A DNA stretch of 62,247 bases. It comes from Termitinemataceae bacterium (lineage in GTDB: Bacteria; Spirochaetota; Spirochaetia; Treponematales; Breznakiellaceae). The translations under genes were made by a program, and so were the position numbers. Below, piece by piece: positions 1,894 through 60,157 of the stretch; positions within the stretch are counted from its first letter, which is position 1; every line of letters starts with the position of its first letter. Below the pieces are notes generated by a model. It ran no database searches. It was given only the letters and a program-made list of their open reading frames with translations, and was not told the origin of the DNA. The stretch lies in assembly GCA_036245275.1 (NCBI GenBank), contig BTID01000001.1, forward strand, positions 1 through 62,247, given 5' to 3'.

Positions 1894-1996
1894 AGGGCAC
1901 CTAAAAATTAAAACAGCACCTTTTCAGTAGGCACTTCTTAATGTATCATTAAGGTATATTGCACTAAGGTATATTGCAACAGATAGGAGGAATGGT

Positions 1997-2980: not shown

Positions 2981-2989
2981 GAGCATAAT

Positions 2990-4797: not shown

Positions 4798-5663
4798 TGG
4801 CAAAACCGGCAAAAGATGCTCCTTTAAAAATATCGTATCAAGCAAAAGAAAGTACTTCATGTCCTGTGTGCGAAACTGCATTCCACCGCGAAGAATTATT
4901 ATCAGGCAGCGGACGCTTAATTGCCGGTGAACTTACAGATGAGCTGCACAGACTTTACGAGCCGTCTGCAAAATACGGAAGTTTGTATCCGCTTGCATAT
5001 CTTGCTACCGTATGTCCTATTTGCTGGTTTGCTTCGATGGATGCCGATTTTTTAAAACTGCCTAGCGATAAAATAGACGCAGCAGGAAATGATACAGCGG
5101 CACGGAAAAAAGAAGTTGAAATGTTACATCCTAATGTTGACTTTGAGTCACCGCGTGATCTTGTTTCCGGTATGGTTTCGCAATATCTTGTTATGCGCTG
5201 TTATGATTATTATACGCCGCAATTTTCACCGACTATAAAGCAAGCCTTAGCCGCATTAAGGGCAGGTTGGCTTTTGGATCATCTGGATAAAGCAGAAAGC
5301 GGTCAACATTACGACTGGCTTGCCGTTTTGCTAAAAAAGAAAGCTCGTTTTTTTTATTCCGAAGCACTTAAAAAAGAACAAACCGGCAAGGAATCATTGT
5401 CTGCACTTGGCAACTTGGGTCCAGACACAGATAAAAATTATGGTTATGAAGGCGTGCTTTATCTTAACGGATATTTAGAATATAAATTCGGCGATACAAA
5501 CGATCCTGACATACGCAAAGATGCGCTTGCAAATGCAAAACGTACTCTTGCAAAAATGTTCGGTATGGGCAAATCATCAAAAAGCAGACCTGGTCCGCTT
5601 ATGGAAAAGTCCCGCGCTCTTTACGATATGTTCGCAAAAGAGTTAGGCGAATTCGATGAATAA
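4797..5663 (+). CDS. DUF2225-like protein (N-terminal CxxC...CxxC zinc-ribbon, helical C-terminus)
   Basis: TAATG 1-nt overlap with cdaR. CPVCETAF...CPICWF is a zinc-ribbon pair. The family assignment is from memory only. Confidence 0.5.
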   Translation: MAKPAKDAPLKISYQAKESTSCPVCETAFHREELLSGSGRLIAGELTDELHRLYEPSAKYGSLYPLAYLATVCPICWFASMDADFLKLPSDKIDAAGNDTAARKKEVEMLHPNVDFESPRDLVSGMVSQYLVMRCYDYYTPQFSPTIKQALAALRAGWLLDHLDKAESGQHYDWLAVLLKKKARFFYSEALKKEQTGKESLSALGNLGPDTDKNYGYEGVLYLNGYLEYKFGDTNDPDIRKDALANAKRTLAKMFGMGKSSKSRPGPLMEKSRALYDMFAKELGEFDE

Positions 5664-5671
5664 AAAATATG

Positions 5672-6997
5672 CTATAAATCTTCTGCGGTTTTGTATATGG
5701 TGTTAAATACCGGAATGATGTCCGATTGTTCCATAGCGGCGAATGCTACGCGCAGGTATTTATTTTCTAGGGATACTGTGCCTATGCCGTGTTTATGCAA
5801 TAGTTCCAAGCGCAGTTGTTCGGCATTGTTTTTTTTGCAGCACAATGTCATAAAATAGCCGGAGTTAAACGGTAAGGGTGTAAGCGCTGTAGATCCGGAA
5901 TGCTCGGCAATCACTTTTTTTACGGTTAGGTATCTGGTTTTTAAAAGGTTAAAAAGGTCTTGCTTTTCGGCTGCTGTATTTTCATCTTTGTATGTTTTAA
6001 TCAAAAAGTTTTGCGACGGTGTATTCGAGCATGAAACTGAGGAACGTATTGTTCCCATAAACTTTGTTGTAAGTGCATCAAACTGTTCTGTGTTCATTCC
6101 GGCAGAACCGAAAGTTACCATAGCCAGACGGAAGCCCCAACTGTAATCCTCTTTTGTAGGACCATCGGCTTTTACAGCAAGAATATTTTTATGGGCATTA
6201 CAGAGGCGGCTGAATATTGATTCTTTGCAGGTTTCCTCTTCATAAAAAAGTCCAAAGTAGGCATCATCGCTTATAACTAGGACATCAGCTCCCTTATCTG
6301 CTGCCTCAACAATGCAATCAACAAGGGCATCCTCTTCTGCATTATTAGGTGCATAGCCGGAAGGATTGTTGGGAAAATTCAAAATAATCCGCACCACGCC
6401 GCGTTTTGCCTCATCCTTTATGATTCTGGTGATGTTTTTTATATCCAAACCGGCATTATCACCTGCAGATGTGTCAAAAAGCGGTATTCCGCGTAAATAT
6501 CCGCCGCGGCGTTCTTCAAAAATCAACTTGTAATTATCCCAAGAGGGGGCTCCTGCTAAAAAAGTGCAGTCTTCATCAAGAAAAAGGTCGGCGGTAAACG
6601 AAATTCCAGCCGTAATACCTGGCACAACCACCGGTAATGAAATCAAATTGCTGTCTAGCGAAGGATTTTTTTCCAAAATCAGCTTTTTCCAAAGCTCACG
6701 AACCTCAGGAATACCGGCTGTGGGGGCGTAAGCAACCATCTCGGCAGAAGTAAGCGTGGGCATAAGACGGGTAAACGCGGAAAGCATCAATGGTCTACCG
6801 ACATTGTAAGCCATACCGATTGTCGCATTGGCAAAAGTAGCAGCCTTCTTTGCCTCAAAACCTTGTGCAATGATTCCTTTTGGAAAATAAATGCGCCGTC
6901 CGAATTTCGACAAAAGTCTTCCGGCAACGCATCCGTCAAGAATCTCATTTAATTGAATTGCCAGCATGTCCATAATTTTATGATACCGTATTAGCAC
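5672..6997 (-). CDS. Class I/II PLP-dependent aminotransferase (aspartate aminotransferase-like)
   Basis: NFPNNPSGY motif, overall length and fold-type I pattern. Confidence 0.75.
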   Translation of the reverse strand: MLIRYHKIMDMLAIQLNEILDGCVAGRLLSKFGRRIYFPKGIIAQGFEAKKAATFANATIGMAYNVGRPLMLSAFTRLMPTLTSAEMVAYAPTAGIPEVRELWKKLILEKNPSLDSNLISLPVVVPGITAGISFTADLFLDEDCTFLAGAPSWDNYKLIFEERRGGYLRGIPLFDTSAGDNAGLDIKNITRIIKDEAKRGVVRIILNFPNNPSGYAPNNAEEDALVDCIVEAADKGADVLVISDDAYFGLFYEEETCKESIFSRLCNAHKNILAVKADGPTKEDYSWGFRLAMVTFGSAGMNTEQFDALTTKFMGTIRSSVSCSNTPSQNFLIKTYKDENTAAEKQDLFNLLKTRYLTVKKVIAEHSGSTALTPLPFNSGYFMTLCCKKNNAEQLRLELLHKHGIGTVSLENKYLRVAFAAMEQSDIIPVFNTIYKTAEDL

Positions 6998-8730: not shown

Positions 8731-11654
8731 TATTTTATATTATCGGCGATTGGAGGCAGGTTTATATCATCAGGCGGGGCTTCTTCTTCCACAAAATCAA
8801 CATCAATGTATTCTGCATCCATATCCAAACCTTCGTTTTCGCCCATCTCGTTATTGCCTCTTCGTATTTTTAGGGCGACGGTTTTTGTAACGCCGTTTTC
8901 CATTGTAACACCCAACAGTGTAGATGCGCTGGTGCTTGTTTTTGTATTGTGAGTAATCACGATGAATTGGCTTTTCTTACCGAATTCCCGCAGCATTGCA
9001 ACAAAACGGCTTACGTTATCGGCATCAAGAGCGGCATCAATTTCGTCAAGAAAACAAAACGGTGAAGGTTTTACAAGGTATGTTGCGAACAAAAGAGCAA
9101 CCGCCGTCATTGTTTTTTCGCCGCCGGATAACAGACTGATGTTTTCAAGTTTTTTGCGCGGAGGCTGTGCAAAAATCTCAATGCCGGATTCCAAAACATT
9201 TTCGGCATCAACAAGACGCAAAATCCCCTGCCCGCCTCCAAAAAGCCGCCGGAACATATTATGAAAATTCTTTTTTATTTTTGCAAAACTTGACATAAAC
9301 ATATCCGAAGATTTTTGTCTGCTGATAGCCGCTACTTCTTCCATGTCGGATTTTGCTTTTTCCAAGTCTTCGATCTGTTTGCTCATAAAATCATAGCGTG
9401 TCTTGACTTCTTTAAATTCCTCCGGTGCCATATAGTTTATCTGCCCCATTTCGCGTTCTGCCGCTTTTTGTTTTGCTAAATCTTCGCGCAGTGCGGCTTG
9501 CGGAATTGTAATTTGATAAATACGCTCCTCGAATTCCAAAAGGTCGCGTGAATGTGTTTCGCGGAAATTTTCCTGAATATTATTAATCTCGTTTTCCGAC
9601 TGTGCTATTTCTAAAGTTAGTTTTTCTACTAAAAAACGCGCCTTATCCAGAGACTCTTTTTGTTTTATTTGCTTTGCCTGCTTGCCGGAAACTTCGCTGT
9701 TGCGCTTGGTAATATCCTTTTCCAACTTATCCAGCTTAACCAAAATCTCTTGTCCGCGTTTGGTAATATCAGCAATTTCTGATTCAGTATCTTCTATACG
9801 CTCGTTAATTTCTGAAAAACGTTTATTTTGAGCAAAGATTTCATCCTGTACCGCCTTTAATTGAGCTTCCTGTTCGGCAATTTGCCGCCTGATAAGCCTT
9901 GCTTTATCCTCAGCGGCAGCTTTTTCTGCAATCATGCGGGTGCGGTTCATCTGTAAATCGTGCAATGTTGCCTTGTATTCATCAATTTTGATGCTGATTT
10001 TTTCGTTTTCGCCGCGTAGTTCGATAATTTGCTGCCTTTTTGCGGCAACCTGCTCTTTACAAGATCTAATTTCCGCATCAAAGCTGCGTTTTTGGGTGAT
10101 AATACCTTCAGGAGCCAAGAATTCGTCAATAAATGTAGGAGTACTTGCCTTGTAAGCGGCAAATAATGTGTTTATATCGCGTACAAAAGCAGCACTTTCA
10201 CCAAAAGCTTCAGCTAGAGTTTGGGCAATTTGCTTGGTTTGATTGGGGTTTAAAGGATTGCCTGATGCTGCCCTATCTGCTGCGTCTACAAGGTCGCGCA
10301 ATAAAACTTCCCTGCCTTTTAACAAAGTTTCCAGTTTTTTAAGTGCTTCTTCCAAGCTTTCTTGATTTTTTACGCGCTCTCCAGCAGAATAACCGGCATT
10401 TTTTAGACCGGCATCAAGCGCCGCGACAATATCATCAGTAATTGATTCAAGTTTTGTCTCTGTTTCGCCTCGTTTTGTCTCCAAATTGACAATATCAGCC
10501 TCGCAATCCTTGATAGTTTCGTCATTTTCTGTTGATTTTGATGCTGCAACATTGATTTGTTCGGTAAAAGAAGTGATATTTTCTTCGTAACTCTGCACTT
10601 TCTTCTGTAAATCGCGGACAACACCGTCTTGCTCGTCAGCATCTTCGTTAAGTTCTTCGATTTTTAGAGTAATTGACTGCAACCGTGATTCGATCAATGC
10701 AATTTGCCCGCTAATTTGGGTGCGCTGCTCGGTTAAAAGACCCACTTCATTTTCTTTGTTTGTTTTATCTTTTTGTAAAGATAAGCCTTCAAGCTGGCAG
10801 GCGGAAAGTTGATTTTGCAGAGCGGCAACTTCGTCAACAAAATCGTCCAGCGTTTTGGAAGTTTCTTCAAGCTCCTTTTGCAGGCCATCGCGTTCTGTTA
10901 TGCGGTTTTTTAAGGTTTCGCCGCGGGCATCCCGCTCGTCACGAAATTGTTTAAGGCGTAACAACTGAATATCACGTTCAAGACCGAAAATTTCATCTTT
11001 TAAGGCACGATAACGGATAGTTTTTGCCGCCTGAACCTCTAGTGTATCATAATTACGCTTTATTTCCTTGATTAAAGCCTCTACTTGCTTAATATTTTCC
11101 TCAGTTCTGGCAATTTTTAGCTCTGCTTCGCGTGTTTTTGCCTTATAACTTGTAATTCCTGCGGCTTCTTCGAATAAATACCGCCTATCCTCCGGCTTGG
11201 AAGATAAAACTTGATCTATTTTGCCCTGTTCCATCACGGAATACGCCGCTTTTCCAACGCCTGTATCCATAAAAAGTTCGCGGACATCTTTTAATTTTTT
11301 TTCCTGCGAATTTATTGAATATTCACTTTCACCTGAGCGGTAAAGACGGCGGCGGATCTGCACTTCCGGCATATCAATAGGCAGCAAACCTGTTTCGTTA
11401 GCAAGAGTTAAGGTAACTTCTGCCACACTAAGCGCCTTTCGCGATTCTGTACCGTTAAAAATAACGTCTTCCATTTTGTCGGCACGCAGCGCGCCTGTTT
11501 TTTGCTCGCCTAGAACCCACTTTATCGCGTCAACCACATTCGATTTACCGCAGCCGTTGGGTCCCAAGAGTGCGGTAATCCCATCGGCAAATTCAATGCG
11601 CGTTTTGTCTGCAAACGACTTAAAACCAAAAATGTCCAAACTTTTTAAAAACAA
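8730..11654 (-). CDS. smc: Chromosome partition protein SMC
   Basis: N-terminal Walker A is FKSFADKTRIEFADGITALLGPNGCGKSN. There are long coiled coils and a hinge. The C-terminal signature LSGGEKTMTAVALLFA and Walker B CFLDEIDAALD are present. Confidence 0.95.
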   Translation of the reverse strand: MFLKSLDIFGFKSFADKTRIEFADGITALLGPNGCGKSNVVDAIKWVLGEQKTGALRADKMEDVIFNGTESRKALSVAEVTLTLANETGLLPIDMPEVQIRRRLYRSGESEYSINSQEKKLKDVRELFMDTGVGKAAYSVMEQGKIDQVLSSKPEDRRYLFEEAAGITSYKAKTREAELKIARTEENIKQVEALIKEIKRNYDTLEVQAAKTIRYRALKDEIFGLERDIQLLRLKQFRDERDARGETLKNRITERDGLQKELEETSKTLDDFVDEVAALQNQLSACQLEGLSLQKDKTNKENEVGLLTEQRTQISGQIALIESRLQSITLKIEELNEDADEQDGVVRDLQKKVQSYEENITSFTEQINVAASKSTENDETIKDCEADIVNLETKRGETETKLESITDDIVAALDAGLKNAGYSAGERVKNQESLEEALKKLETLLKGREVLLRDLVDAADRAASGNPLNPNQTKQIAQTLAEAFGESAAFVRDINTLFAAYKASTPTFIDEFLAPEGIITQKRSFDAEIRSCKEQVAAKRQQIIELRGENEKISIKIDEYKATLHDLQMNRTRMIAEKAAAEDKARLIRRQIAEQEAQLKAVQDEIFAQNKRFSEINERIEDTESEIADITKRGQEILVKLDKLEKDITKRNSEVSGKQAKQIKQKESLDKARFLVEKLTLEIAQSENEINNIQENFRETHSRDLLEFEERIYQITIPQAALREDLAKQKAAEREMGQINYMAPEEFKEVKTRYDFMSKQIEDLEKAKSDMEEVAAISRQKSSDMFMSSFAKIKKNFHNMFRRLFGGGQGILRLVDAENVLESGIEIFAQPPRKKLENISLLSGGEKTMTAVALLFATYLVKPSPFCFLDEIDAALDADNVSRFVAMLREFGKKSQFIVITHNTKTSTSASTLLGVTMENGVTKTVALKIRRGNNEMGENEGLDMDAEYIDVDFVEEEAPPDDINLPPIADNIK

Positions 11655-11746
11655 AGAAAACTCCCAGCTATGTCATAGTAGACTACCCTAAAAATTGTAA
11701 AGTTTCAAGGTAAAATAGGGTGCTTGTCAAGCCAAAGTGATCAAAT

Positions 11747-12092
11747 TGGAGATGGCGGGAGTTGAACCCGCGTCCTAATACGCGTTGTGTAAACTTCTAC
11801 AGGTTTAGCCGTGGATTGAATTGTCGAGGGTCACTTGGCTTCGCGGCACGCGGGGACCCCGTATTTTGGATTGTTCTTATCGCATAGCGTCCAAACACGC
11901 TAATTGACCAGCCCTGATTGCGACGCAGCATCCGTCCCTCAAGGCGGCGGGGCGGTGCCGCGCGATTATGCCGCTAAGGCGTAGTCGTAATTGCTAGTTT
12001 TGGCAATTAATTTTTTTGCCGAATATTAGGAGGTCGGCACTCCACCTGCAGCCTACACCCCGAACCGTACCAGTCGAAACCGGAACATCCCC
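11747..12092 (-). ncRNA. ssrA: tmRNA (SsrA)
   Basis: The minus-strand 5' end is GGGGATGTTCCGGTTTCGACTGG. The 3' T-arm/acceptor is GGACGCGGGTTCAACTCCCGCCATCTCCA. The internal tag reading frame GCC AAA ACT AGC AAT TAC GAC TAC GCC TTA GCG GCA TAA gives (A)KTSNYDYALAA*. Confidence 0.85.
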
Positions 12093-43399: not shown

Positions 43400-44665
43400 A
43401 TGACATTTAGTGCTGACTTTCGGTCGCAAAATTTGCAAAAATCTGCCGTGCATCCATGCTTTAACTCGTGCGGTGGTAAAAATGCTCGTATTCACTTGCC
43501 TGTGGCAGAAAATTGCAATATTCAGTGTAATTATTGCCGCCGCAAGTTTAGTTGTGTAAATGAAAGCCGCCCGGGTGTTACTTCTGCCGTGCTGACTCCG
43601 CACGAGGCGCAGGAACGTTGCCTAAAAGCACTGGAAAAGATTGAAAACCTAAGTGTTGTCGGTATCGCAGGGCCGGGTGATGCTCTTGCTTGCCCTGATA
43701 ACACTTTTGAAACGTTGCGTCTTGTGCGCGATGTGTGGAAGGAGGCAATTTTTTGCCTTTCAACGAACGGTCTTTTGCTGCCGGAATATGCGGATTCCCT
43801 TGCAGAATGTGGTGTTTCTCATATTACCGTTACAATAAATTCGCTAAAACCTGAAACAGCTAGGAAAATTTACCGCTATGCAGACTATCATGGTAGGCGT
43901 TTGACTGGTAGAGCGGCATCAGATCAGCTTATAGAGAACCAAATTGAGGGTCTTAGGCGAGCTTCGGCACTCGGAATTGTTTGTAAAGTGAATACAGTGT
44001 TCATAAATGGCCTAAATGACAGCGAAATTCCGCAAATTGCAGCCGCCGTTAAGGATGCCGGAGCAGATTTAATGAATATTATGCAGCTTATTCCTGTTCC
44101 GCACACTCTTTTTGAAGATATTCCCCTTGTCCGCAACGAATATATAAACGAAATGCGCACTAAATGTGAATCTATCCTGCCTCAGATGCGTCATTGCAAG
44201 CAGTGCCGCGCAGATGCTGTAGGAACACTGGATAATGATTTGTCGTTGGAGTTTACTGAATGTTTTACGGAAAAAACCAAAAGTTTGGCGGCAAAGGACG
44301 CAAGCGGCACGAACAAAAATAGCGGGCAAGTGCTTGTTTTTGCGGTTGCCAGCAAGAATGGAGTGCTTGTCGATGAGCATTTTGGGCATATAAGTGAGTT
44401 TTTGATATATGAATGGTGTAACGGCGGCATCCTGTTTAAGGAAAAGCGGCCTGTCAGTCAATTTTGCGGCGGAGGAAATTGCAGTGCGCATGAACGTTTG
44501 CCGCAAATTTATGATGTTTTAAAGGATTGTGCGGCAATTTTGGTGCTGCGCATTGGCGAAGTTCCACGTGCTTTTTTAGCCGAACGCGGAATTAAGGTTA
44601 TTATGACTTACGACTATGTGGAAACGGCGGTAAAAGAAGCGGCTGAAAATTTGATTAACAGATGA
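43400..44665 (+). CDS. NifB-like radical SAM protein with C-terminal NifX/NafY-like domain
   Basis: HPCFNSCGGKNARIHLPVAENCNIQCNYCRRKFSCVNESRPGV matches the NifB signature (HPC..., CxxxCxxC, NESRPGV). The C-terminal VFAVASKNGVLVDEHFGHISEFLIYE is a NifX-like domain. Confidence 0.85.
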   Translation: MTFSADFRSQNLQKSAVHPCFNSCGGKNARIHLPVAENCNIQCNYCRRKFSCVNESRPGVTSAVLTPHEAQERCLKALEKIENLSVVGIAGPGDALACPDNTFETLRLVRDVWKEAIFCLSTNGLLLPEYADSLAECGVSHITVTINSLKPETARKIYRYADYHGRRLTGRAASDQLIENQIEGLRRASALGIVCKVNTVFINGLNDSEIPQIAAAVKDAGADLMNIMQLIPVPHTLFEDIPLVRNEYINEMRTKCESILPQMRHCKQCRADAVGTLDNDLSLEFTECFTEKTKSLAAKDASGTNKNSGQVLVFAVASKNGVLVDEHFGHISEFLIYEWCNGGILFKEKRPVSQFCGGGNCSAHERLPQIYDVLKDCAAILVLRIGEVPRAFLAERGIKVIMTYDYVETAVKEAAENLINR

Positions 44666-44740
44666 AAAGGATTTTTTACGATACTAATTCCTAGTATTTT
44701 GATATGTTTTCTATGATTTTTATTTATATAGGAGTGTTTT

Positions 44741-45808
44741 ATGAAAAAAATTGGAAAAATTGTGCTTGCAGCGGTTTTATTCGGCATAGCGGCACTTGGC
44801 GGCTGCCAGAAAAAGGATGCGGCAAAGGCGGGTTTGGAAAAGATCAATATCATCTCGAATCCTGATTTGACTACCAGTCCGCTGTCGATTATTGCACGGG
44901 AGCGGGGGTATTTTACAGAGGAAGGGCTGGAACCCAACTTTATTTTTCTGCGTGACGGCCGCACAGAGGCGCTCAGTATGGGAAAGGGCGATCTTTACCT
45001 TACAGAGCTTATTCCGCCTCTTGTTTATGCTTCGCAGGGTGCGCCTATAAAAATTATAGGCGGTACGCTCTCCGGCGGTAACTATGTTATTGTAAAAAAA
45101 GAAAACGAGGAAAAATACAGTAAAATAGAAAACTGGAAGGGCGCAAAACTTGGAACGGTCAGGCTTTCTACTTCGGAAATGGTATCCCGTTATGCGCTAA
45201 GTCAAGCAGGAATTACAGACGATGTGCATTTTCAGGAAATCGACAATTACCCAAACATAATAGAGGCTGTGCGCAAAGGTCAAGTTGATATTGGCTTTAT
45301 TGCAGGCGGTCCGTTCCGATCAAGTGCTTTGGATTTGGGACTTTCAATTTTGTTTCCTATGAATGAGATGTCGCCTAACTATTTATGCTGCCGCTTGAAT
45401 GTCTATGCTCCGTCTTTGGAATCGCGGAGAGGAATTTTTGTAAACTTTATTGTTGCCTACCTACGGGCATACCGCGACTTTAATGATCCTGCGCAGCGCA
45501 ACGATATTACAAAAATATTTGCAGACATTACATCACAGAGTGAAGAATTTATTACAGAAACTGTTTTTGATTCAGAGCGCAATGGTCAGCGTTCCTACAA
45601 TCCTGATCCGGATTTACGACGCATCATCAATGTTTGGGACACTCTGGAATCTACTGAATATATACATCCAGATGGTATTGATGTCCGCAGTGTAGTTGAT
45701 ACTTCTGTGTATAAAGAAGCTTTGGACATTATAATCAAACGTTACCCTGACGATCAATTGTTTAGGGAGTTATCTGCATATTACGCAGAAAATGATTTAG
45801 ATGTTTAG
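44741..45808 (+). CDS. ABC transporter substrate-binding lipoprotein, NMT1/SsuA/TauA-like (sulfonate/taurine/nitrate family)
   Basis: SD AGGAG and lipobox LGGC. The size and sequence pattern fit the NitT/TauT-family SBP, and it is adjacent to the cognate ATPase and permease. Confidence 0.75.
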   Translation: MKKIGKIVLAAVLFGIAALGGCQKKDAAKAGLEKINIISNPDLTTSPLSIIARERGYFTEEGLEPNFIFLRDGRTEALSMGKGDLYLTELIPPLVYASQGAPIKIIGGTLSGGNYVIVKKENEEKYSKIENWKGAKLGTVRLSTSEMVSRYALSQAGITDDVHFQEIDNYPNIIEAVRKGQVDIGFIAGGPFRSSALDLGLSILFPMNEMSPNYLCCRLNVYAPSLESRRGIFVNFIVAYLRAYRDFNDPAQRNDITKIFADITSQSEEFITETVFDSERNGQRSYNPDPDLRRIINVWDTLESTEYIHPDGIDVRSVVDTSVYKEALDIIIKRYPDDQLFRELSAYYAENDLDV

Positions 45809-45826
45809 AACAAAATAGGTAAAAAA

Positions 45827-46627
45827 ATGGGTAGAATTGATATTGAAAACTTAAGCCTTGCCTTTAAAGAGGGCACTCATGAGTTTAAGGCACTAGACGG
45901 CGTGAATGCCGTTATAGAAGATGGTGAGTTTGTCTGCATAATAGGACCCTCCGGATGCGGTAAAAGCACACTTTTGGGCATTTTAGAAGGATTGACATTT
46001 CCTGATTCAGGGCGTGTCCTAATTGACAATGTGCCTATAACAGGACCGGGTCCGGAGCGGGCGGTGGTGTTTCAGCAGTATACTCTGTTTCCATGGATGT
46101 CTACAAAACAAAATGTAATTTTTGGTATGAAGCAGGTTATAAAGGATATGTCCGCAGGAACTTACGAAAAACAGGCAGAGGAATTCTTGAATAAGGTAGG
46201 TCTTACCGGTGTAGGCGACAAGTTGCCGGGGCAGCTTTCCGGAGGTATGCAGCAGCGTGTGGCGATTGCCCGTGCGCTTGCAGTTAGTCCGCAGATATTA
46301 TTGATGGACGAACCTTTTGGTGCTATTGATGCTAAAACCCGTGTATCGCTGCAGGAATTACTTTTGGAATTGTGGAGTGCAGACGAAAAAAAGAAAACTG
46401 TTGTCTTTGTTACGCACGATATTGATGAAGCACTGTTGTTGTCTGACAAAATTATTTTTATGAAGCCCGGAAAAATTTCAGAAATGATTCCTGTATCTCT
46501 GCCGCGTCCCCGCAACAAAGACGGACATCTGCAAGATAACGAAGAATACCGCAGACTGCGCTCAGCACTGGTTTCAAAATTCTATCAGGATGTTACAGAG
46601 AATATAGGTGCTGGGGTAGTGTTATGA
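45827..46627 (+). CDS. ABC transporter ATP-binding protein (NitT/TauT family, SsuB/TauB-like)
   Basis: [36 protein letters not shown] and [11 protein letters not shown]. Confidence 0.9.
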
Positions 46628-47568
46628 GAAATAAACCATTACCTTTTAATGTACTCCATAGAGTGTTTAATTTTCCGACATTGTTTTTTATTTTGATAAT
46701 TATACTATCAACAGCGGTTTCCGGTAAAATGAACGAGCGTTTTAAAATACAAAGTGCATATCCGTTTATTGCAGCATGTTTTTTATCTTGGATATTTTTT
46801 CAAATTAAACTACACAATGTTAAAGGCAGACAGGCGGCAAAAGATGTTGCCGGTATAGTGCTTGGCTTTCTTTTGATATGGGAAGTTTGCGTTACCAAAT
46901 TTGATCTATTACCTTATGTTTTTGTACCTGCACCGGAAAATGTTTTTGCAGTTTTTATACACGATTACAAAATGATACTGTCAGGTTTTGTGCGTTCAAT
47001 TTTCTTGCTTGTTACAGGATTTACCGCATCAATTATTGTAGGCATAGCTTTAGGCACTGCAGTTGGATGGATTCCGCGTTTGCGCACTGCGGTGTTTCCA
47101 ATCGCAAAAGCGATCAGTACGGTACCGGCGCTTATATACAGTCCATACCTTGTAGTTATAATGCCTACATTTACAAGCGCATCAATCTTTGTAATTTTTT
47201 GCGGTACATTTTGGATGTTATTTATGAATATGATACAGCGCGTAGGCACTATTGATGCGCGGATCATCAACACTGCAAAAATTCTAAATGTAAAAACAGG
47301 CACTATGATCTTTAAAATTATTTTGCCTTATTCACTGCCGCATATTTGGAATGATATGACAACTGTACTCTCTATTTCTGTAATGACACTTACTGTTGCA
47401 GAAATGCTTGGTGCGGATCGCGGCATGGGATTTTATGTACGCCGCTCGCTTGATTATGCAAACTATACACAGTCTATAGCCGGTATAATTTTTATTGCGT
47501 TAGTTATTACTGCGCTTAACGCACTTATTTCCGGTATTCGTAAAAAAGTTATCAAGTGGAGTTACTAA
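46624..47568 (+). CDS. ABC transporter permease (SsuC/TauC-like)
   Basis: It has a 4-nt overlap with the ATPase gene. It is a multi-TM protein with a binding-protein-dependent transport-system inner-membrane pattern. Confidence 0.85.
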
Positions 47569-47607
47569 AAAAAATAGTATTGGATAGTAAATATAAAAGG
47601 AAAAAAC

Positions 47608-48534
47608 ATGGCAGATATAAAAAAAGATCTTTCTGAATTGATAGGTAATACTCCGCTAATGGAACTTGCACGCATAGAAAAAAAACATGCCTCAGGTGCT
47701 AGGATATTGGCAAAGCTTGAATACTTTAATCCGGCGGGAAGCGTTAAAGATCGTATTGCCCGCGCGATGATCGAAGATGCCGAAGACAAGGGTTTAATAG
47801 GTCCAAATACCACAATTATAGAGCCTACAAGCGGTAATACAGGTTTGGGACTTGCTGCAGTTGCTGCATTCAAAGGACATCGCGTAATTATAGTGGTGCC
47901 GGATAATACATCGCAATCGTATCAGGCATTGCTGCGCGCTTATGGTGCAGAAGTAACATTAACCGATGGTTCTAAAGGCATGAGAGAGGCAATCGCAAAA
48001 GCAGAAATAATCGCAGATGAAATAAAAGACAGCTTTATACCTGGGCAGTTTGTAAATGCAGCAAACCCAAATGCGCACTTTGCAACAACAGGACCTGAGA
48101 TATGGCGTCAAACAGACGGCAAAGTTGATTTTTTTGTAGCAGGTGTTGGAACAGGAGGCACGATTTCCGGAGCCGGCGGATTTTTAAAATCTGTTAATCC
48201 GCAAATTAAAGTTATTGCTGTGGAGCCTGATTCATCACCATTTTTGTCGGAAGGTAAAAGCGGCGTTCACCGTATTCAAGGCATAGGTGCCGGATTTGCA
48301 CCGTCTGTACTTAATACACATATATACGATGAAGTGATCCGTGTGCATGATGACGATGCCTTTGAAACAGCACGCAGCATTGCAAGATACGAAGGCATAC
48401 TAGTTGGTTCTTCCTCCGGTGCTGCTGTTTGTGCGGCTTTGGAAATTGCTGCACGCGCAACAGCGCAAGGAAAAAATATTGTTGTGCTGTTACCGGATTC
48501 CGGCGAACGTTATGTGCTATCCGGTGCATTGTGA
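47608..48534 (+). CDS. cysK: Cysteine synthase A / O-acetylserine sulfhydrylase
   Basis: LIGNTPLMEL, NPAGSVKDRIA (PLP Lys), EPTSGNTG, GTGGTISG and SSGAA. Confidence 0.9.
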   Translation: MADIKKDLSELIGNTPLMELARIEKKHASGARILAKLEYFNPAGSVKDRIARAMIEDAEDKGLIGPNTTIIEPTSGNTGLGLAAVAAFKGHRVIIVVPDNTSQSYQALLRAYGAEVTLTDGSKGMREAIAKAEIIADEIKDSFIPGQFVNAANPNAHFATTGPEIWRQTDGKVDFFVAGVGTGGTISGAGGFLKSVNPQIKVIAVEPDSSPFLSEGKSGVHRIQGIGAGFAPSVLNTHIYDEVIRVHDDDAFETARSIARYEGILVGSSSGAAVCAALEIAARATAQGKNIVVLLPDSGERYVLSGAL

Positions 48535-48545
48535 CAGGAGGCATT

Positions 48546-50750
48546 GTGAACAATCTTTATGAAATTATAGATATTAAGAATCCCAGAGAATATGTTAATG
48601 AACCCGGAGCAATTGCAAAGGCCGGATCTTATGTTGCGCCTATTGCAAAAAAAGTGTTTGTTGTAGGAAGTCCTACTGCATTAAAGTTGGTAAAGGCTTT
48701 GTTTGCAAGTTTTGACTGTGAAAAAATTGTATACAAAGTGTACGAGTATTCAGGCTACCCTACCTATGACGAGGCAAAAAAAATTGCAAAACTTGCAAAT
48801 GAATTTGATTCAGGCGCAATTGTAGGAGTAGGCGGCGGGCGCATACTGGATCTTGCAAAAGCTTGCGGCGCTTATGCAAACTTGACCGTTATAGCTGTGC
48901 CTACACAGGCTGCCACTTGTGCATGCTGGGCGGCTGTTTCCATGATGTATACAGCAGAAGGTGTTTTGATCGAAGCTCTATTTAACAAACGTTCGCCTGA
49001 ATTGATCATAGCAGACACGGATATTATTATGCATGCACCATTGCGTTATCTGTGTGCAGGAATCGGCGATACACTTGCAAAATGGTACGAGTCGTATCCA
49101 AATTTAAAAACAAGTAATGATTTTTATCTGCGCCTTACAGCACGTTATGGGGAGTTCTCGCGTGATATACTTGAAACATTAGGCATCAAAGTTGTTAATG
49201 ATATAAGGCGCGGCATCTATGATATAGAAAATATAAAAGAAGTGATTAATTGTGTATTTTTGATTGCAGGAATGTGCGGTGCGATACATGGCATTAGCGA
49301 TACACAAGGTATAGCGCACCCGATCTACAATGCGGCATCTGCATTGCCAAAATTGCGAGATAAATTGCACGGCGAAAAGGTCGCATTCGGTTTAGTTGTG
49401 CAGGCAGCTCTTGAAGGCCGCGATGCCGGAGAAATTGCACACCGTGTAGAAATATTTAAAAAATTAAAACTGCCTATTACATTATCAGAACTGGGTTTGG
49501 ATTCTGATTTTGAAAAAAATTTTAAAACAATCAACGAAAATATAAAAAAAGAAAAGCCGGTATATCCGGGACTTTTGCGCCCATGGACTAGCGAAGAACT
49601 ACGTAAGGCTATAATGACAGCAGATGAGTATGCACGGTGCAAAAAAAAATATCCTGCAGAATTGCAAATCAAATATAAAAACGCACTGGATAAGATTGAG
49701 CCATTTAAAGCGGCACGTTCTATAGAAAGTGCAAAACGTGAATATGGGTTTTCCGGTGTTATAAAACTTGCAGGTAACGAAAATGTACACGGCGTATCAC
49801 CAAAGGTTACACAGGCGCTGTCAGTTTTACATAGCGAAATATCGTATTATCCTGATACGGCAGTTATGCAGCTTCGCGGTGCACTTAGTGAAAAACTTGG
49901 AATAGCCGGTAATGAATTATTATTCGGCAACGGATCATTTGAACTGATTAGCCTTACCGCTTTAGCTGTACTTGAACCTGATACAGAAGCTATAATTCCA
50001 ATGCCGTCATTCGGTTGGTATGCAATTGCAACACGCGCAGAAGGTGCAACACCGGTTTTTGTGCCGTTAAAAAATCACAAACTTGATCTTGATGCAATGC
50101 TTGCAGAAGTGACAATACAGACCCGCATTATTTGGATATGCAATCCAAATAATCCTACAGGCACTTATGTAAATGCCGCAGAGCTGGAGGACTTTATAAA
50201 AAAAGTGCCGCCTTCAATTCTTATAGTACTAGATGATGCATATATTGATTTTGCTCCAGAGGACTTTCCTAATACAATCGATCTAGTACACCAGTATAAC
50301 AATGTTATAAGCTTGCGCACTTTTTCAAAAGTATACGGACTAGCGTCACTGCGTATAGGGTATGCAATAGGTAATGCTGCACTTATCGCAAAAATATCAT
50401 CTGTGCGCGGGGCTGTAAATGTAAACACATTTGCACAAACTGCTGCCTTTGCCGCACTGCAAGATGATGACTTTTACAATAGGGTGTTAAACGAAAACGC
50501 AAAGGGAAAAGATATGTACTACAAAAAGCTGGATAGTCTGCATATTGAATACATACCTACAGCGTGTAACTTTATAATGATTAACACCGGTAAAGATGCA
50601 AACCTTGTAGAAGAAGAATATTTAAAGCGCGGTATTTTGATCCGCAACGGCAACGAGTTCGGAATGCCTACTTGGGTACGCATAACAATAGGCACAGAAG
50701 AACAAAATAAAAAAGTATTGGATATATTGGAGGATATAATATGTCATTAA
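48546..50750 (+). CDS. Fusion protein: iron-containing alcohol/glycerol dehydrogenase-like domain + HisC-family (class II) aminotransferase domain
   Basis: The GTG at 48546 lies 4 nt after AGGAGG. The N-terminal domain has GVGGGRILDLAK, AVPTQAATCA, GDTLAKWYE and HGEKVAFG. The C-terminal domain has GNENVHGVSP, NPNNPTGT and RTFSKVYGLASLRIGY. It is one uninterrupted frame. Confidence 0.8.
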   Translation: MNNLYEIIDIKNPREYVNEPGAIAKAGSYVAPIAKKVFVVGSPTALKLVKALFASFDCEKIVYKVYEYSGYPTYDEAKKIAKLANEFDSGAIVGVGGGRILDLAKACGAYANLTVIAVPTQAATCACWAAVSMMYTAEGVLIEALFNKRSPELIIADTDIIMHAPLRYLCAGIGDTLAKWYESYPNLKTSNDFYLRLTARYGEFSRDILETLGIKVVNDIRRGIYDIENIKEVINCVFLIAGMCGAIHGISDTQGIAHPIYNAASALPKLRDKLHGEKVAFGLVVQAALEGRDAGEIAHRVEIFKKLKLPITLSELGLDSDFEKNFKTINENIKKEKPVYPGLLRPWTSEELRKAIMTADEYARCKKKYPAELQIKYKNALDKIEPFKAARSIESAKREYGFSGVIKLAGNENVHGVSPKVTQALSVLHSEISYYPDTAVMQLRGALSEKLGIAGNELLFGNGSFELISLTALAVLEPDTEAIIPMPSFGWYAIATRAEGATPVFVPLKNHKLDLDAMLAEVTIQTRIIWICNPNNPTGTYVNAAELEDFIKKVPPSILIVLDDAYIDFAPEDFPNTIDLVHQYNNVISLRTFSKVYGLASLRIGYAIGNAALIAKISSVRGAVNVNTFAQTAAFAALQDDDFYNRVLNENAKGKDMYYKKLDSLHIEYIPTACNFIMINTGKDANLVEEEYLKRGILIRNGNEFGMPTWVRITIGTEEQNKKVLDILEDIICH

Positions 50751-52224
50751 AAAATGCAGCGTTTCCGGTAAGGGAAAACAGACTTGGTTCTATAACAGGA
50801 TACCAAGGTGTGTTAGGCGATTTGGTATCTAAATCATGCTGTGGTAATTTAAAAAACCGTGAACGGTGTTTTAGTCAATCAAGTTTATGTTTGTCGATGT
50901 GTGCATTAGGACAACTTATGGGAATACGCGATGCCGTTATTATTTACCATGCACCTTCAGGATGTCAGGCAAGTGCGGCAGGTACACAGGTGTTAGCAAA
51001 ACAGATTGCAGCGAGTATCGGTGTAAAAAATAATACTGTAATGATAGGCACAGATATGAATGAACGCGACACTGTATTCGGTGCGCTTGACGCCGTACGC
51101 GATATTGCAAAAAAGGCATACAATGATTATCACCCTAGTGTTATTTTTTTGGCAAGCTCTTGTGTTAGCGGTGTAATAGGCGAGGACATGGACAGCCTTG
51201 CCTCCGAACTAAGTGATGAATTACCGGTAACTGTAGAAAGTGTACATTGTGAAGGTTTTAAATCGCGTATATGGGCATCCGGTTTTGATATTGCAGACCA
51301 TGCAGTATTGCGTGCGATTGTTAAACCGCCAAAAGAAAAACGCAACGTAATCAATTTTAAAAATTTTTTTGAAAGTGAACGTAAACAAATTACAGAAATA
51401 TTTGCACGTCTTGGTGTTAAGACTCAATTTTTGTATATGAATTCAACAGTAGAAGAGTTGTCGCATATATCAGAATCGCTTGCTACAGTTTGTATCTGCG
51501 GTACACTTGGTACATATCTTGGAAACATGCTGGAAGAAAAATATAACGTGCCTTATATACGCACTATCAATCCGTTAGGGATACAAGGGTTTGATGCATG
51601 GCTTACAAAAATTGGCGAGACAATCGGTAAACAAAATGAAGTTGCAGAGTTTTTAAAAGAAGAACGCGAAAAATATTTGCCGGAAATAGAAAAAGTAAAA
51701 GTTGAATTAAAGGGCTTACGTGCTGTTATTGGGATGGGACCGGGTTATACTTACGAAGTTAGCCGTGTTCTGCAAGAACTTGGTATAGAAACTGTTTGGG
51801 CAGCCGCATGGCATTACGATTACAAATATGATAACGGTGATGTTCCTCCGGCTCTTACATGGCTAAAAGAAAATTCAAAAACCGACATCAATTTAAGTGT
51901 TGCCGACATGCAAAATTATGAAATATTAAATATCATCAACACACATAAACCGGATCTGTATTTTTCGCGTCATCCGGGCAGCACGGTGTGGGCGATAAAA
52001 CAAGGTGTTGCTGCCGTTTATGTTGCGGATGAATATATGATCTTTGGATATAAGGGCATGCTGAACTTTGCACGTTATGTTGCTGATACAATCCGTAACC
52101 GCAGCTTTGAAAAAAATCTTGCTGCCCGCATAAAACTTCCGTACACAAAATGGTGGTATACTCAACAAAATGATGCAATGTTGTTACCTGAAAAACAATC
52201 AACGGTAAAGGCGGCGGCAGTATA

Positions 52225-52225
<1 letters not shown>
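50741..52225 (+). CDS. Nitrogenase component-1 alpha-like protein (NifD/NifE-like, group IV-type)
   Basis: GGAGG SD. It has a 10-nt overlap with the upstream gene. The HAPSGC, TDMNERDTVFG, ASSCVSGVIGEDMD and ICGTLGTYLGNMLEEKYNVPY blocks parallel NifD/E conserved blocks. Confidence 0.8.
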
Positions 52226-54413
<2,188 letters not shown>

Positions 54414-54545: not shown

Positions 54546-54618
54546 GCCGCTGTAGCTCAGTCGGTAGAGCAAAGGACTGAAAATCCTTGTGTCGAGGGTT
54601 CGATTCCCTCTGGCGGCA
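54546..54618 (+). tRNA. tRNA-Phe (GAA)
   Basis: GCCGCTGTAGCTCAGTCGGTAGAGCAAAGGACTGAAAATCCTTGTGTCGAGGGTTCGATTCCCTCTGGCGGCA folds as a cloverleaf. The anticodon loop is CTGAAAA and the T-loop GGTTCGATTCC. CCA is not encoded. Confidence 0.9.
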
Positions 54619-59841: not shown

Positions 59842-59978
59842 TATTTAAGTGTATCACAAAAAAGAAGATAAGCATATTACAATCTCACATAAGGGCGCAT
59901 CCCACCTACGGTGGGTCGGGCTATCCGCTTTATCTTTTTGTTTCACAAAAAGTATACCGCTTCTATCCCTTGCGCGTT

Positions 59979-60157
59979 GGGTGCAAAGCTGCACTCAAAA
60001 GAATTTTAACACGGAGGCGCACAGAGAAACACAGAGGAAAAACACAGAGAAAGAAAAGATCACCAAATCTTGTCTCCTCCGTGTACCTCCCGTACCTCGA
60101 CTTTTCCATTCTGTGGATGGAAAAGTGTTAAATTTGCCTTAATTTTTTGCCGCACCC
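59979..60157. mobile_element. Palindromic MITE-like element (copy D, divergent centre)
   Basis: Termini are GGGTGCAAAGC...TTTTAACACGGAGGCGCACAGAG... and ...CTCCGTGTACCTCC...GTGTTAAATTTGCC...GCCGCACCC. No clear target duplication. Confidence 0.7.

Follow-up and report, generated by a model that had tools for sequence, protein, structure and literature searches.

A fused dehydrogenase and aminotransferase beside Mar-related nitrogenase-like genes: a candidate module for thioether acids in anaerobic bacteria

Background

Why should a metal-dependent dehydrogenase be fused to an aminotransferase, and why should the fusion stand directly in front of nitrogenase-like genes? The question is raised by contig BTID01000001.1 of a Termitinemataceae bacterium (assembly GCA_036245275.1), of which the first 62,247 nucleotides were analyzed here (hereafter the window). 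Positions 48546-50750 encode a single polypeptide that joins an iron-type alcohol dehydrogenase (Fe-ADH) to a HisC-type aminotransferase. Group IV nitrogenase-like (NFL) enzymes are widespread in anaerobes, and sulfur substrates are known just for Mar and Isr. According to a 2026 Chemical Reviews article, the genes found around group IV enzymes have so far done little to reveal what these act on.

A first-pass annotation of the window proposed that the fusion converts an amine to an aldehyde and then to an alcohol, and channels the product into the adjacent reductase. We tentatively suggest, with somewhat less than even confidence, that the dehydrogenase and the aminotransferase form a module that interconverts an alpha-amino acid, a 2-oxo acid and a 2-hydroxy acid of thioether type, in support of reductive C-S cleavage.

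Results and discussion

The reading frame and its domains

The region 48546-50750 (+) is one uninterrupted frame of 734 codons with a GTG start and a TAA stop, and an AGGAGG is found 7-12 nt upstream of the GTG at 48546. The frame carries the complete motif sets of both families, and every motif quoted in the first-pass annotation was found where it had been placed: GGGRILDLAK (residues 96-105), GDTLAKWYE (174-182) and HGEKVAFG (275-282) on the Fe-ADH side, and GNENVHGVSP (410-419), NPNNPTGT (533-540) and RTFSK (591-595) on the aminotransferase side. Pfam assigns Fe-ADH to residues 13-158 (E 3e-23) and Aminotran_1_2 to residues 404-727 (E 2e-54). The NCBIfam glycerol dehydrogenase model PRK09423 matches residues 10-367 with 220 bits, below its cutoff of 336, and the hisC model TIGR01141 matches residues 380-731 with 317 bits, above its cutoff of 276.6.

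In brief, residues 1-370 (48546..49655, +) make up the dehydrogenase half, a GldA/HcxA-family metal-dependent NAD(P) dehydrogenase by family, solved relatives, alignment and a confident predicted fold. Residues 371-391 (49656..49718, +) form the inter-domain linker, as seen in the alignment of fused orthologues. Residues 392-734 and the stop codon (49719..50750, +) make up the aminotransferase half, placed in subfamily I-beta (HisC/ArAT type, ArAT being aromatic amino acid aminotransferase) by profile matches, alignment and solved relatives. AlphaFold2, run on a nine-sequence alignment, predicts two confident domains (mean predicted local distance difference test score, pLDDT, 82; predicted template modelling score, pTM, 0.61), separated by residues 371-391, which have a pLDDT below 50 and are predicted to be disordered. 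Profiles, alignment and pLDDT place the junction at residues ~365-391, in agreement with the join at around 365-385 proposed earlier. The overlap of 10 nt between the stop of the fusion and the start of the NifD-like gene (ATG at 50741) was likewise borne out.

Authenticity and rarity of the fusion

The first-pass annotation had raised the possibility that the fusion was made by the assembly. A run of nine A (49641..49649, +; codons KKK 366-368) in the linker, which that annotation did not remark on, is a candidate sequencing-error site: with eight or ten A at this position the frame would break, the dehydrogenase stopping at aa 378-393 and the aminotransferase being left on an open reading frame (ORF) of its own that overlaps it. 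Eight further full-length fusions, 39-69% identical to that of the window, come from different metagenome assemblies, including metagenome-assembled genomes of Spirochaetaceae and Treponema. They are collinear, and their linkers vary in length and sequence with the frame always kept. The nearest relatives (P0002-P0007, 57-69% identity, independent assemblies) are all fused at the same place, and the junctions in loci L004, L006 and L007 are in frame without any homopolymer of six or more.

When 1.84 billion representative proteins were scanned exhaustively with HMMER, only about seven fused clusters emerged, whereas several thousand other strong matches (4,140 at E <= 1e-30) appear single-domain. 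Since the fusion recurs in independent assemblies at 39-69% identity and has homopolymer-free junctions, we conclude from these alignments that the fused architecture is real in the lineage of the window, yet rare. The concern thus falls for the architecture and stands for this contig, where the A9 run means that the junction still needs read support. A homopolymer error here, with the organism having two overlapping genes, would leave the function of the pair unchanged. The A9 lies exactly in the linker, A8 or A10 leaves an open aminotransferase frame, and the split state is commoner among the relatives; given the identically placed fusions of P0002-P0007 and the homopolymer-free junctions, we nevertheless regard such an error as very improbable.

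Three more distant dehydrogenase-aminotransferase fusions (P0020, P0022 and P0025; 751-807 aa, 33-38% identity) lack the Phe/Trp signature of the aminotransferase described below, and may represent further independent fusions of other specificity.

The dehydrogenase half

The metal (Zn/Fe) ligands D175, H258 and H275 and the GGG loop for NAD binding (GGGR, residues 96-99) are kept. Two further motifs, AATCACWA (122-129) and GIGDTLAKWYE (172-182), are of the HcxA type. In an alignment with the E. coli proteins, the window reads PTQAATCACW where HcxA has PTIAATCAAW and GldA has PTIASTDAPC; at the second motif it is identical to HcxA, where GldA has GIGDALATWFE. The Asp in the PTIASTDAP motif of GldA binds the glycerol substrate. 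The NAD-specifying Asp37 of E. coli GldA is replaced by Gly or Ser in the family, as in HcxA.

The dehydrogenase half scores 152 bits against the YbdH model NF007880 (cutoff 429), and HcxA groups beside the pair-type clade in a rough neighbour-joining tree rooted on GldA. We therefore assign it, on sequence grounds, to a clade that is related to HcxA/YbdH and is not orthologous to it. The earlier label of a glycerol-dehydrogenase type does not hold as a function, as the HcxA motifs are present and the substrate Asp of GldA is absent. Loss of the NAD-specifying Asp in the GldA fold points to NADP(H) use. The dehydrogenase thus probably uses NADP(H), and hence would have a reductive role in vivo.

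A precedent may be found in E. coli K-12, where hcxA (YbdH; the RefSeq name is hydroxycarboxylate dehydrogenase A) and the methionine transaminase gene ybdL/mtnE are divergent neighbours (L095:3390-5747). A comparative-genomics study found that ybdH co-occurs with methionine-salvage genes and is tightly repressed by MetJ via metboxes shared with mtnE. E. coli thus offers a possible example of an HcxA-type dehydrogenase that acts alongside an aminotransferase on a methylthio 2-oxo acid.

The aminotransferase half

Lys595 of the fusion is the lysine that binds pyridoxal phosphate (PLP), and N536, D563, Y566, T592, S594 and R603 complete the PLP-binding set. This set (Asn157, Asp184, Tyr187, Thr211, Ser213, Lys214 and Arg222 in E. 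coli HisC) is kept in 36 of 36 pair-type sequences. The anion-binding arginines are R700 and R712 in the fusion; by E. coli HisC numbering, Arg335 is kept in 36 of 36 and Arg322 in 35 of 36.

Nasir et al. (PMC4703992) showed experimentally that a pocket tetrad decides specificity in subfamily I-beta. In histidinol-phosphate aminotransferase (HspAT), a hydrophilic tetrad binds the imidazole and the amino group (Asn103/Tyr127/Met129/Tyr261 in the mycobacterial enzyme, Asp85/Tyr110/Met112/Tyr243 in E. coli). The ArAT of Mycobacterium tuberculosis has Val86/Phe110/Leu112/Phe246 instead, and is active on hydrophobic amino acids with no activity on histidinol phosphate. The arginine pair serves to bind carboxylates, those of the dicarboxylate co-substrate among them, and a sulfonate, 2-(N-morpholino)ethanesulfonate (MES), occupies the anion site of M. 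tuberculosis HspAT (PMC4703992).

The tetrad of the fusion is hydrophobic: F465, F489, W491 and V624. We aligned the pair-type and fused sequences to E. coli HisC together with a set of lone HisC proteins, the latter being whatever the genome scan returned. Position 85 is Phe in 36/36 pair-type or fused sequences and Asp in 40/50 lone HisC; at position 110 the former have Phe and the latter mostly Phe; position 112 is Trp (35/36) versus Arg or Gln; and position 243 is Ile, Val or Leu versus Phe. The structure of ArAT (4R2N) is the third-best solved relative of the aminotransferase half (E 3e-51).

As judged from these residues, with a hydrophobic tetrad in place of the hydrophilic one, the aminotransferase half is no histidinol-phosphate enzyme, even though it scores above the hisC cutoff. 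HisC-type, as used in the first-pass annotation, is therefore misleading as a statement of function; the tetrad is of the ArAT type, which in M. tuberculosis goes without histidinol-phosphate activity. The pocket is probably ArAT-like and narrower than that of ArAT, suiting a slim hydrophobic side chain.

Distribution and evolution of the gene pair

We surveyed the pair by scanning GTDB species representatives, followed by BLASTP of the window proteins against all ORFs of the retrieved loci (simple ORF calls). Most homologues are not fused, the two halves being separate, adjacent genes. Such split pairs occur in Lachnospiraceae (Butyrivibrio, Anaerocolumna xylanovorans, strains MC2017 and MA2020), Clostridium species and [Clostridium] fimetarium, and also in Oscillospiraceae, Synergistaceae, a Bacteroidales genome, other Treponema and an Erwinia. 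An early impression that the family is confined to spirochaetes, gained from 16 matches of a word-indexed protein search, was overturned by the GTDB scan. The habitats of the relatives are presumably the termite gut, the rumen and other plant-degrading anaerobic communities.

The dehydrogenase precedes the aminotransferase in 17 split loci, and the order is reversed in 8. Quick neighbour-joining trees of the two halves are congruent, indicating that the pair evolves as a unit, and in such a tree lone HisC is separate from the clade of the pair-type aminotransferases. One fusion clade (window, L001, L002, L004, L013 and L006) is sister to a split Synergistaceae pair. The other (L007, 417-2615, and L017, 820-3009) falls within the split Treponema pairs. 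Each of the two fusions goes back to a pair with the dehydrogenase in front, and the two halves give the same picture. On these trees the fusion arose at least twice, independently, which is classical evidence that the two activities work together.

The operon and the nitrogenase-like reductase

The fusion is the sixth of nine co-directional, tightly spaced genes (43400-54413): NifB-like, NMT1/SsuA-type binding protein, ATP-binding cassette (ABC) ATPase, permease, CysK, fusion, NifD-like, NifK-like and NifH-like. The catalytic NifD-like subunit (50741..52225, +; Pfam Oxidored_nitro) has the MarD of Rhodospirillum rubrum as its best solved relative (9FMG_A, E 3.5e-86, versus ~1e-30 for true NifD), and is 33% identical to it over 472 residues. 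The NifK-like subunit (52225..53538, +) was identified by profile match and cysteine alignment and has conserved C12, C36 and C95. The operon ends with the NifH-like ATP-dependent Fe protein (53568..54413, +; Fer4_NifH, TIGR01287 449 bits).

The L-cluster ligands Cys270 and His429 (Mar numbering) are kept, with C253 and the aligned His in the window, and the P-cluster cysteines are kept in both D and K. We compared the residues listed for the active site and channel in the R. palustris Mar study (R. rubrum numbering). In the active site W195, F199 and H375 are kept, whereas H194, S196 and F374 are changed to Ile, Ala and Trp. All four channel residues are changed (M70/C73/Y98/I101 to Cys/Gly/Thr/Leu).

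Two further NifDK clades occur beside the pair in other genomes. One (type 2) is 26-32% identical to that of the window and also has MarD as its best match; the other is 40-50% identical to that of the window. All three clades keep the same cysteines. Isr (group IV-F) diverges from the nitrogenase pattern of P-cluster and cofactor cysteines, according to a 2026 review, and by the description given there the divergent pattern is absent from all three NFL clades. An Isr-like identity of the type 2 NifDK was rejected in view of the conserved cysteines and the similarity to MarD. In A. xylanovorans, the type 2 NifD-like gene downstream of the pair (L015:12224-13702) is broken up into ORFs of 202 and 290 aa, which could reflect a frameshift, a pseudogene or a sequencing error.

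By their sequences, the neighbouring reductases appear to be Mar-related group IV enzymes with substrate pockets of their own. An Isr-like reductase is therefore not what stands beside the fusion. Nor can methylthioethanol, which the first-pass annotation had considered, be assumed as substrate, given the 33% identity to MarD and the altered pocket and channel. For comparison, Mar2 of R. palustris (~65% identical to Mar1) is reported to have a shifted substrate range already, and NflDK3 (~52-56%) to have no known substrate; both known sulfur substrates of NFL enzymes are 2-hydroxyethyl-S compounds.

The first operon gene encodes a NifB-like radical SAM cofactor maturase (43400..44665, +; Pfam Radical_SAM and Nitro_FeMo-Co; TIGR01290 nifB 393 bits, cutoff 344), with a NifX-like domain at its C-terminus (residues 323-414). 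No NifEN-like genes were found in the window. An ABC importer follows. Its periplasmic NMT1/SsuA-type substrate-binding protein (44741..45808, +) matches Pfam NMT1, NMT1_2 and Phosphonate-bd and, below cutoff, SsuA_fam (45 bits); a comparison with solved structures gave no relative informative for specificity. Its ATPase (45827..46627, +; ABC_tran) is of the nitrate/sulfonate/taurine type (NCBIfam ntrCD, SaoA and taurine ATPase, all below cutoff), and its permease (46624..47568, +; BPD_transp_1) of the TauC/SsuC/NtrB type (NtrB, SaoP and TauC, all below cutoff). The gene before the fusion encodes CysK, O-acetylserine sulfhydrylase or cysteine synthase A (47608..48534, +; TIGR01139 cysK 396 bits, cutoff 351).

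A 640-bp gap lies upstream of the NifB-like gene. Rfam found no known riboswitch or other RNA element in this leader at the gathering threshold or at E<=1, and promoter and terminator scans of it stayed at chance level. A tRNA (54546-54618, +) directly follows the operon, and the genes upstream of it are unrelated. Elsewhere, the window holds a transfer-messenger RNA gene (11744-12092, -) and a borderline Rfam match to the small RNA Flavo-1 (59910-59986, -; 45.8 bits, gathering score 42), which would be unusual in a contig of spirochaete character and could be due to chance.

Synteny and regulation across loci

Among 34 non-redundant pair-bearing loci, NifDK-like genes of the three NFL clades lie within the retrieved DNA in 21, and only NifB in one. 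The remaining 12 have no NifDK-like genes; these are mostly short contigs, but include Erwinia and Paenibacillus. An NMT1/SsuA-type ABC importer adjoins the pair in nearly all 34. In Erwinia we found a bare five-gene cassette (binding protein, permease, ATPase, dehydrogenase, aminotransferase) beside a transposase gene. In L017 the order is NifH-fusion-NifD.

Pfam was run on the 148 other ORFs within 5.5 kb of the pair. The neighbours comprise ABC permeases (21 ORFs), NMT1 binding proteins (16), PLP enzymes of Cys/Met metabolism (8), amino-acid-type binding proteins (8), NifX-like proteins (6), GNAT acetyltransferases (4) and Ldh_2 2-hydroxy-acid dehydrogenases (3), and individual loci contribute a MetI-like cystathionine synthase/lyase, a PatB C-S lyase and a SufS-like desulfurase. 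No histidine or cobalamin genes were found in this census. The orthologues are thus linked to NifDK-like genes, SsuA-type transporters and CysK, and not to histidine or cobalamin biosynthesis, a link that by the first-pass annotation would have refuted its reading. Single loci add a LanC-like (lanthionine/thioether) protein directly after the pair (L026:6936-8276), a ThiF-rhodanese sulfur-transfer protein near it (L040:12604-13782) and an Ldh_2 family protein in the same locus as a fused member (L017:8300-9358).

Regulatory RNAs accompany several pairs. In Ca. Clostridium eludens (L038), an S-adenosylmethionine (SAM, S-box) riboswitch at 9706-9810 lies just downstream of nflDK-nifX and immediately upstream of a two-gene aminotransferase-dehydrogenase unit. 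T-boxes, whose specifier codons we read manually from Rfam cmscan alignments, directly follow the pair in L022 (12362-12587; UGC, Cys), before another (third) NifDK-like set, and in L025 (12273-12493; AUG, Met), before metI-like and patB genes. A further T-box, in L031 (3995-4194), has a CCU (Pro) specifier; it lies 6 kb from the pair and is probably unrelated to it. The SAM riboswitch and the Cys and Met T-boxes thus make these loci responsive to the supply of cysteine, methionine and SAM.

Rfam scans of 19 further loci gave nothing beside the pair except a thiamine pyrophosphate (TPP) riboswitch in Paenibacillus, downstream of the pair-type aminotransferase (L037:11195-11297; L039:11184-11286). 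It precedes an ABC transporter with an NMT1/ThiY-like binding protein (234 bits), and these genes are probably a thiamine-pyrimidine salvage operon that merely adjoins the cassette. A role of the pair in thiamine-pyrimidine salvage (aminomethyl to formyl to hydroxymethyl pyrimidine) was dropped, the TPP adjacency being found in one genus only.

A different partner is found in L006. Its operon (285-6318) encodes a double-cubane-cluster reductase, an ATP-dependent activase, a GST-C-like protein, a GNAT protein and, last, a fusion 48% identical to that of the window; there is no importer. The reductase scores 525 bits against the double-cubane model NF040772 (cutoff 350), and its identification as a 2-hydroxyacyl-CoA dehydratase (Pfam HGD-D) was rejected with 120 bits for the dehydratase model. 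The double-cubane [Fe8S9] reductase, which is also ATP-driven but not homologous to the nitrogenase-like enzyme, is an apparent non-orthologous replacement of the latter. This is a single locus, yet it shows what would be expected if the product of the module goes to a reductase of very low potential.

A proposed role and its alternatives

The role we propose is the following. The dehydrogenase half would be an HcxA-type, metal-dependent and probably NADP(H)-using 2-hydroxy-acid dehydrogenase/2-oxo-acid reductase, and the aminotransferase half a subfamily I-beta enzyme with a narrow hydrophobic side-chain pocket. The most likely substrate would be a sulfur amino acid that carries a thioether, similar to methionine or an S-alkylcysteine; we infer this from the sulfur-centred context, the regulation and the hydrophobic pocket. 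We favour the direction from amino acid via 2-oxo acid to 2-hydroxy acid because the dehydrogenase probably depends on NADPH, because the module is so tightly coupled to the genes of the reductase, and on account of the operon in L006. This would yield a hydroxy-thioether acid, a carboxylated analogue of the Mar substrate 2-(methylthio)ethanol. The NifHDK-like enzyme, if it took over this acid, could break the C-S bond by reduction, setting free a thiol or sulfide for capture by CysK or MetY-type enzymes. The two-step conversion of amine via carbonyl to alcohol in the first-pass annotation thus remains a reasonable general logic for serving a C-S-cleaving nitrogenase-like enzyme, while its aldehyde route is disfavoured by features that fit 2-oxo and 2-hydroxy acids.

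A broader claim, which we consider unlikely but worth stating, is that the module defines the kind of substrate that orphan ATP-driven metallocluster reductases (several Mar-related NFL clades and at least one double-cubane reductase) act on in the cell, and with it a thioether-acid C-S cleavage of anaerobes. Thioether amino acids (S-alkylcysteines and methionine-type compounds, derived from plants or hosts) would be converted to 2-hydroxy thioether acids and then cleaved, as an oxygen-independent counterpart of aerobic S-alkylcysteine salvage. In its boldest form, "mask, cleave, unmask", the amine would be exchanged for a hydroxyl before cleavage, and the resulting mercapto-hydroxy acid converted to cysteine or homocysteine afterwards, with zero net consumption of redox cofactor or nitrogen.

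Several points weigh against the proposed role. Across the family, the substrate class is read from pocket hydrophobicity and context, and cofactor and direction from one sequence position. The binding protein of the importer is of the sulfonate/NMT1 type and not of the amino-acid type, which would better fit an imported non-amino compound. The module stands without a nearby reductase in Erwinia, Paenibacillus, Synergistaceae and Bacteroidales, where a 2-hydroxy-acid product has no obvious sink, and the pairing with three NFL clades could be mere co-regulation in sulfur-starvation islands instead of a sequential pathway. Just one riboswitch, that of L038, directly controls the pair, and if methionine is the substrate, a SAM riboswitch is senseless for the degradative direction. 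The AlphaFold2 model has no defined inter-domain interface or geometry and is therefore silent on channelling. Channelling by means of the fusion, as initially proposed, also finds little encouragement in the disordered linker, the pTM of 0.61 and the fact that most homologues are two separate proteins.

The strongest of the alternatives runs the same chemistry in reverse and independently of the reductase: an imported 2-hydroxy or 2-oxo analogue, for example 2-hydroxy-4-(methylthio)butyrate, would be oxidised and transaminated to methionine, and the reductase would share no more than a sulfur-starvation regulon. This explains the non-amino-acid type of the binding protein, the stand-alone cassettes (that of Erwinia and similar ones in L016, L027, L040 and L051) and the S-box, which before the aminotransferase-dehydrogenase unit suits methionine production, better than the proposed role does. 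It also has the E. coli hcxA-mtnE precedent, in which MtnE makes methionine from a 2-oxo acid, and it sits well with a pair that goes with three NFL clades and not one. However, the NAD-specifying Asp is lost, presumably as in reductive NADPH enzymes, and the fused clades are tightly coupled to reductase genes, as the 10-nt overlap and the order in L017 illustrate. The L006 operon has a double-cubane reductase and no importer, and a natural source of hydroxy analogues in the termite gut or rumen would have to be assumed. We judge methionine formation unlikely on balance, but a serious contender.

Known taurine transaminases (Tpa) are class III (omega) aminotransferases. A route from taurine, or from another carboxylate-free amino-sulfonate or amino-thioether, via an aldehyde to a known substrate of Isr (isethionate) or of Mar (2-(methylthio)ethanol) would agree with the SsuA/TauA-type importer linked nearly everywhere and with the 2-hydroxyethyl-S nature of the known NFL sulfur substrates. 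HisC-type enzymes accept an amine without carboxylate, MES can bind in the HspAT anion site (PMC4703992), and the bulky Phe and Trp could fill the pocket for a substrate without side chain. We nonetheless find such a route improbable. The dehydrogenase has HcxA motifs and not those of Fe-ADH sulfoacetaldehyde reductases, the reductase keeps Mar-type Cys ligands in contrast to the Cys-divergent Isr type, the aminotransferase is of class I/II (PF00155) and not of the class of Tpa, and the strict conservation of the hydrophobic tetrad suggests that the side chain bound there is hydrophobic. The two routes named in the first-pass annotation, taurine via sulfoacetaldehyde to isethionate and that via (methylthio)acetaldehyde, are accordingly disfavoured by the HcxA motifs, the hydrophobic pocket and the Mar-type reductase. 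A related idea, with GldA acting on a glycerol-like sulfonate and HisC on an amino-alcohol sulfonate (cysteinolate/dihydroxypropanesulfonate), was rejected on the HcxA motifs and the hydrophobic pocket; the published cysteinolate pathway uses other enzymes.

Pairs of an aminotransferase and a 2-hydroxy-acid dehydrogenase are known to make aryl-lactate. The module could thus convert aromatic or branched-chain amino acids to 2-hydroxy acids in an aryl-lactate or Stickland-type manner, with the sulfur link being incidental; the ArAT-like pocket, the rank of 4R2N among the solved relatives and the fact that the superfamily of the L006 partner includes 2-hydroxyacyl-CoA dehydratases would agree with this. 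We hold it to be very improbable, because the neighbourhood is consistently one of sulfur (CysK, SsuA-type importers, MetI/PatB, SufS-like, Cys and Met T-boxes, SAM riboswitch), the L006 protein passes the double-cubane model and not the dehydratase one (525 and 120 bits), and the pocket, with Phe for Val86 and Trp for Leu112, is narrower than that of ArAT. A housekeeping HisC and a glycerol dehydrogenase that happen to be fused can practically be dismissed. The TIGR01141 score, the glycerol dehydrogenase model as best NCBIfam match of the N-terminal half and the public naming of homologues as histidinol-phosphate transaminase suggest such a reading, but it is already contradicted by the residues (Phe for Asp85 in 36/36, the hydrophobic tetrad, no substrate Asp or NAD Asp of GldA, GldA model below cutoff). 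In addition, the pair is never found in a his operon, and the pair-type clade stands apart from lone HisC.

Significance

The domain families are known. New are the module as such, the residue signature by which it can be recognised (Phe at HisC position 85, Trp at 112 and HcxA-type dehydrogenase motifs), its repeated fusion and its tie to several orphan reductase clades. It is a recurrent, co-evolving companion of three Mar-related clades, fused twice and once found with a double-cubane reductase. A targeted literature search found no description of the fused architecture, in line with the view of the first-pass annotation that it had not been characterised, and it brought up nothing relevant on the pair next to nitrogenase genes or on bacterial enzymes for the hydroxy analogue of methionine. 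A dehydrogenase-aminotransferase partner is not mentioned in the parts consulted of the Mar structure paper, the Isr paper, a 2026 preprint on R. palustris and the Chemical Reviews article.

The search for substrates is narrowed to a few compounds that can be bought, namely amino, oxo and hydroxy acids with a thioether, and cultured hosts carry the pair (A. xylanovorans DSM 12503, locus L015; [C.] fimetarium DSM 9179, locus L021; Butyrivibrio). We know of no natural substrate of double-cubane reductases, and L006 is a possible lead to these. Thousands of annotations as histidinol-phosphate transaminase or glycerol dehydrogenase at such loci are probably wrong. If true, the proposed role would mean an anaerobic sulfur-scavenging route in termite-gut, rumen and plant-degrading communities, with hydrocarbons or alkenes as possible by-products.

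Comparison with known systems

Two known proteins resemble the halves in fold. GldA shares with the dehydrogenase half the overall fold, the best full-length profile match and the Asp/His/His zinc ligands, but STDAP is replaced by ATCA.W and DALATWFE by DTLAKWYE, the NAD Asp is lost and the score is below cutoff. HisC (TIGR01141) shares with the aminotransferase half the fold, the PLP residues, both arginines and a score above cutoff, but the imidazole pocket has become hydrophobic, there is no his operon and the clade is separate from lone HisC. M. tuberculosis ArAT (Rv3772, 4R2N) belongs to the same subfamily I-beta, with a hydrophobic tetrad and the Arg pair. Its tetrad is Val/Phe/Leu/Phe, compared with Phe/Phe/Trp/(Ile, Val or Leu) here, which gives the pocket another shape, and the window enzyme differs from it in being fused to a dehydrogenase and in standing in a sulfur context.

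At the level of the pathway, Tpa with SarD, TauF or IsfD feeding IslAB or IsrBHDK follows the same logic of a transaminase and a reductase that supply a hydroxy-organosulfur compound for C-S cleavage. The enzyme families differ, the intermediate is an aldehyde there and would be a 2-oxo acid here, and the reductase of the window is not of the Isr type. The Mar system (MarBHDK) of R. rubrum and Rhodopseudomonas palustris is alike in its NifB-like maturase and its sulfur neighbourhood with "sulfonate" transporters and metY/metC, as described in the papers on the proteobacterial enzymes. In the parts of these consulted we found no mention of a dehydrogenase-aminotransferase partner, and MarB of R. 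rubrum is reported to lack the NifX-like domain that the NifB-like protein of the window carries.

A parallel to the pair itself is HcxA with YbdL/MtnE in E. coli, which has the same dehydrogenase motifs (PT.AATCA.W and GIGDTLAKWYE) and metal ligands. The E. coli genes are divergent, neither co-oriented nor fused, YbdL is not an I-beta enzyme of the HisC type, and unlike in the window there is no ABC importer or nitrogenase-like partner. In both cases, a dehydrogenase is paired with an aminotransferase under methionine-responsive control, by MetJ in E. coli and by the SAM riboswitch in L038.

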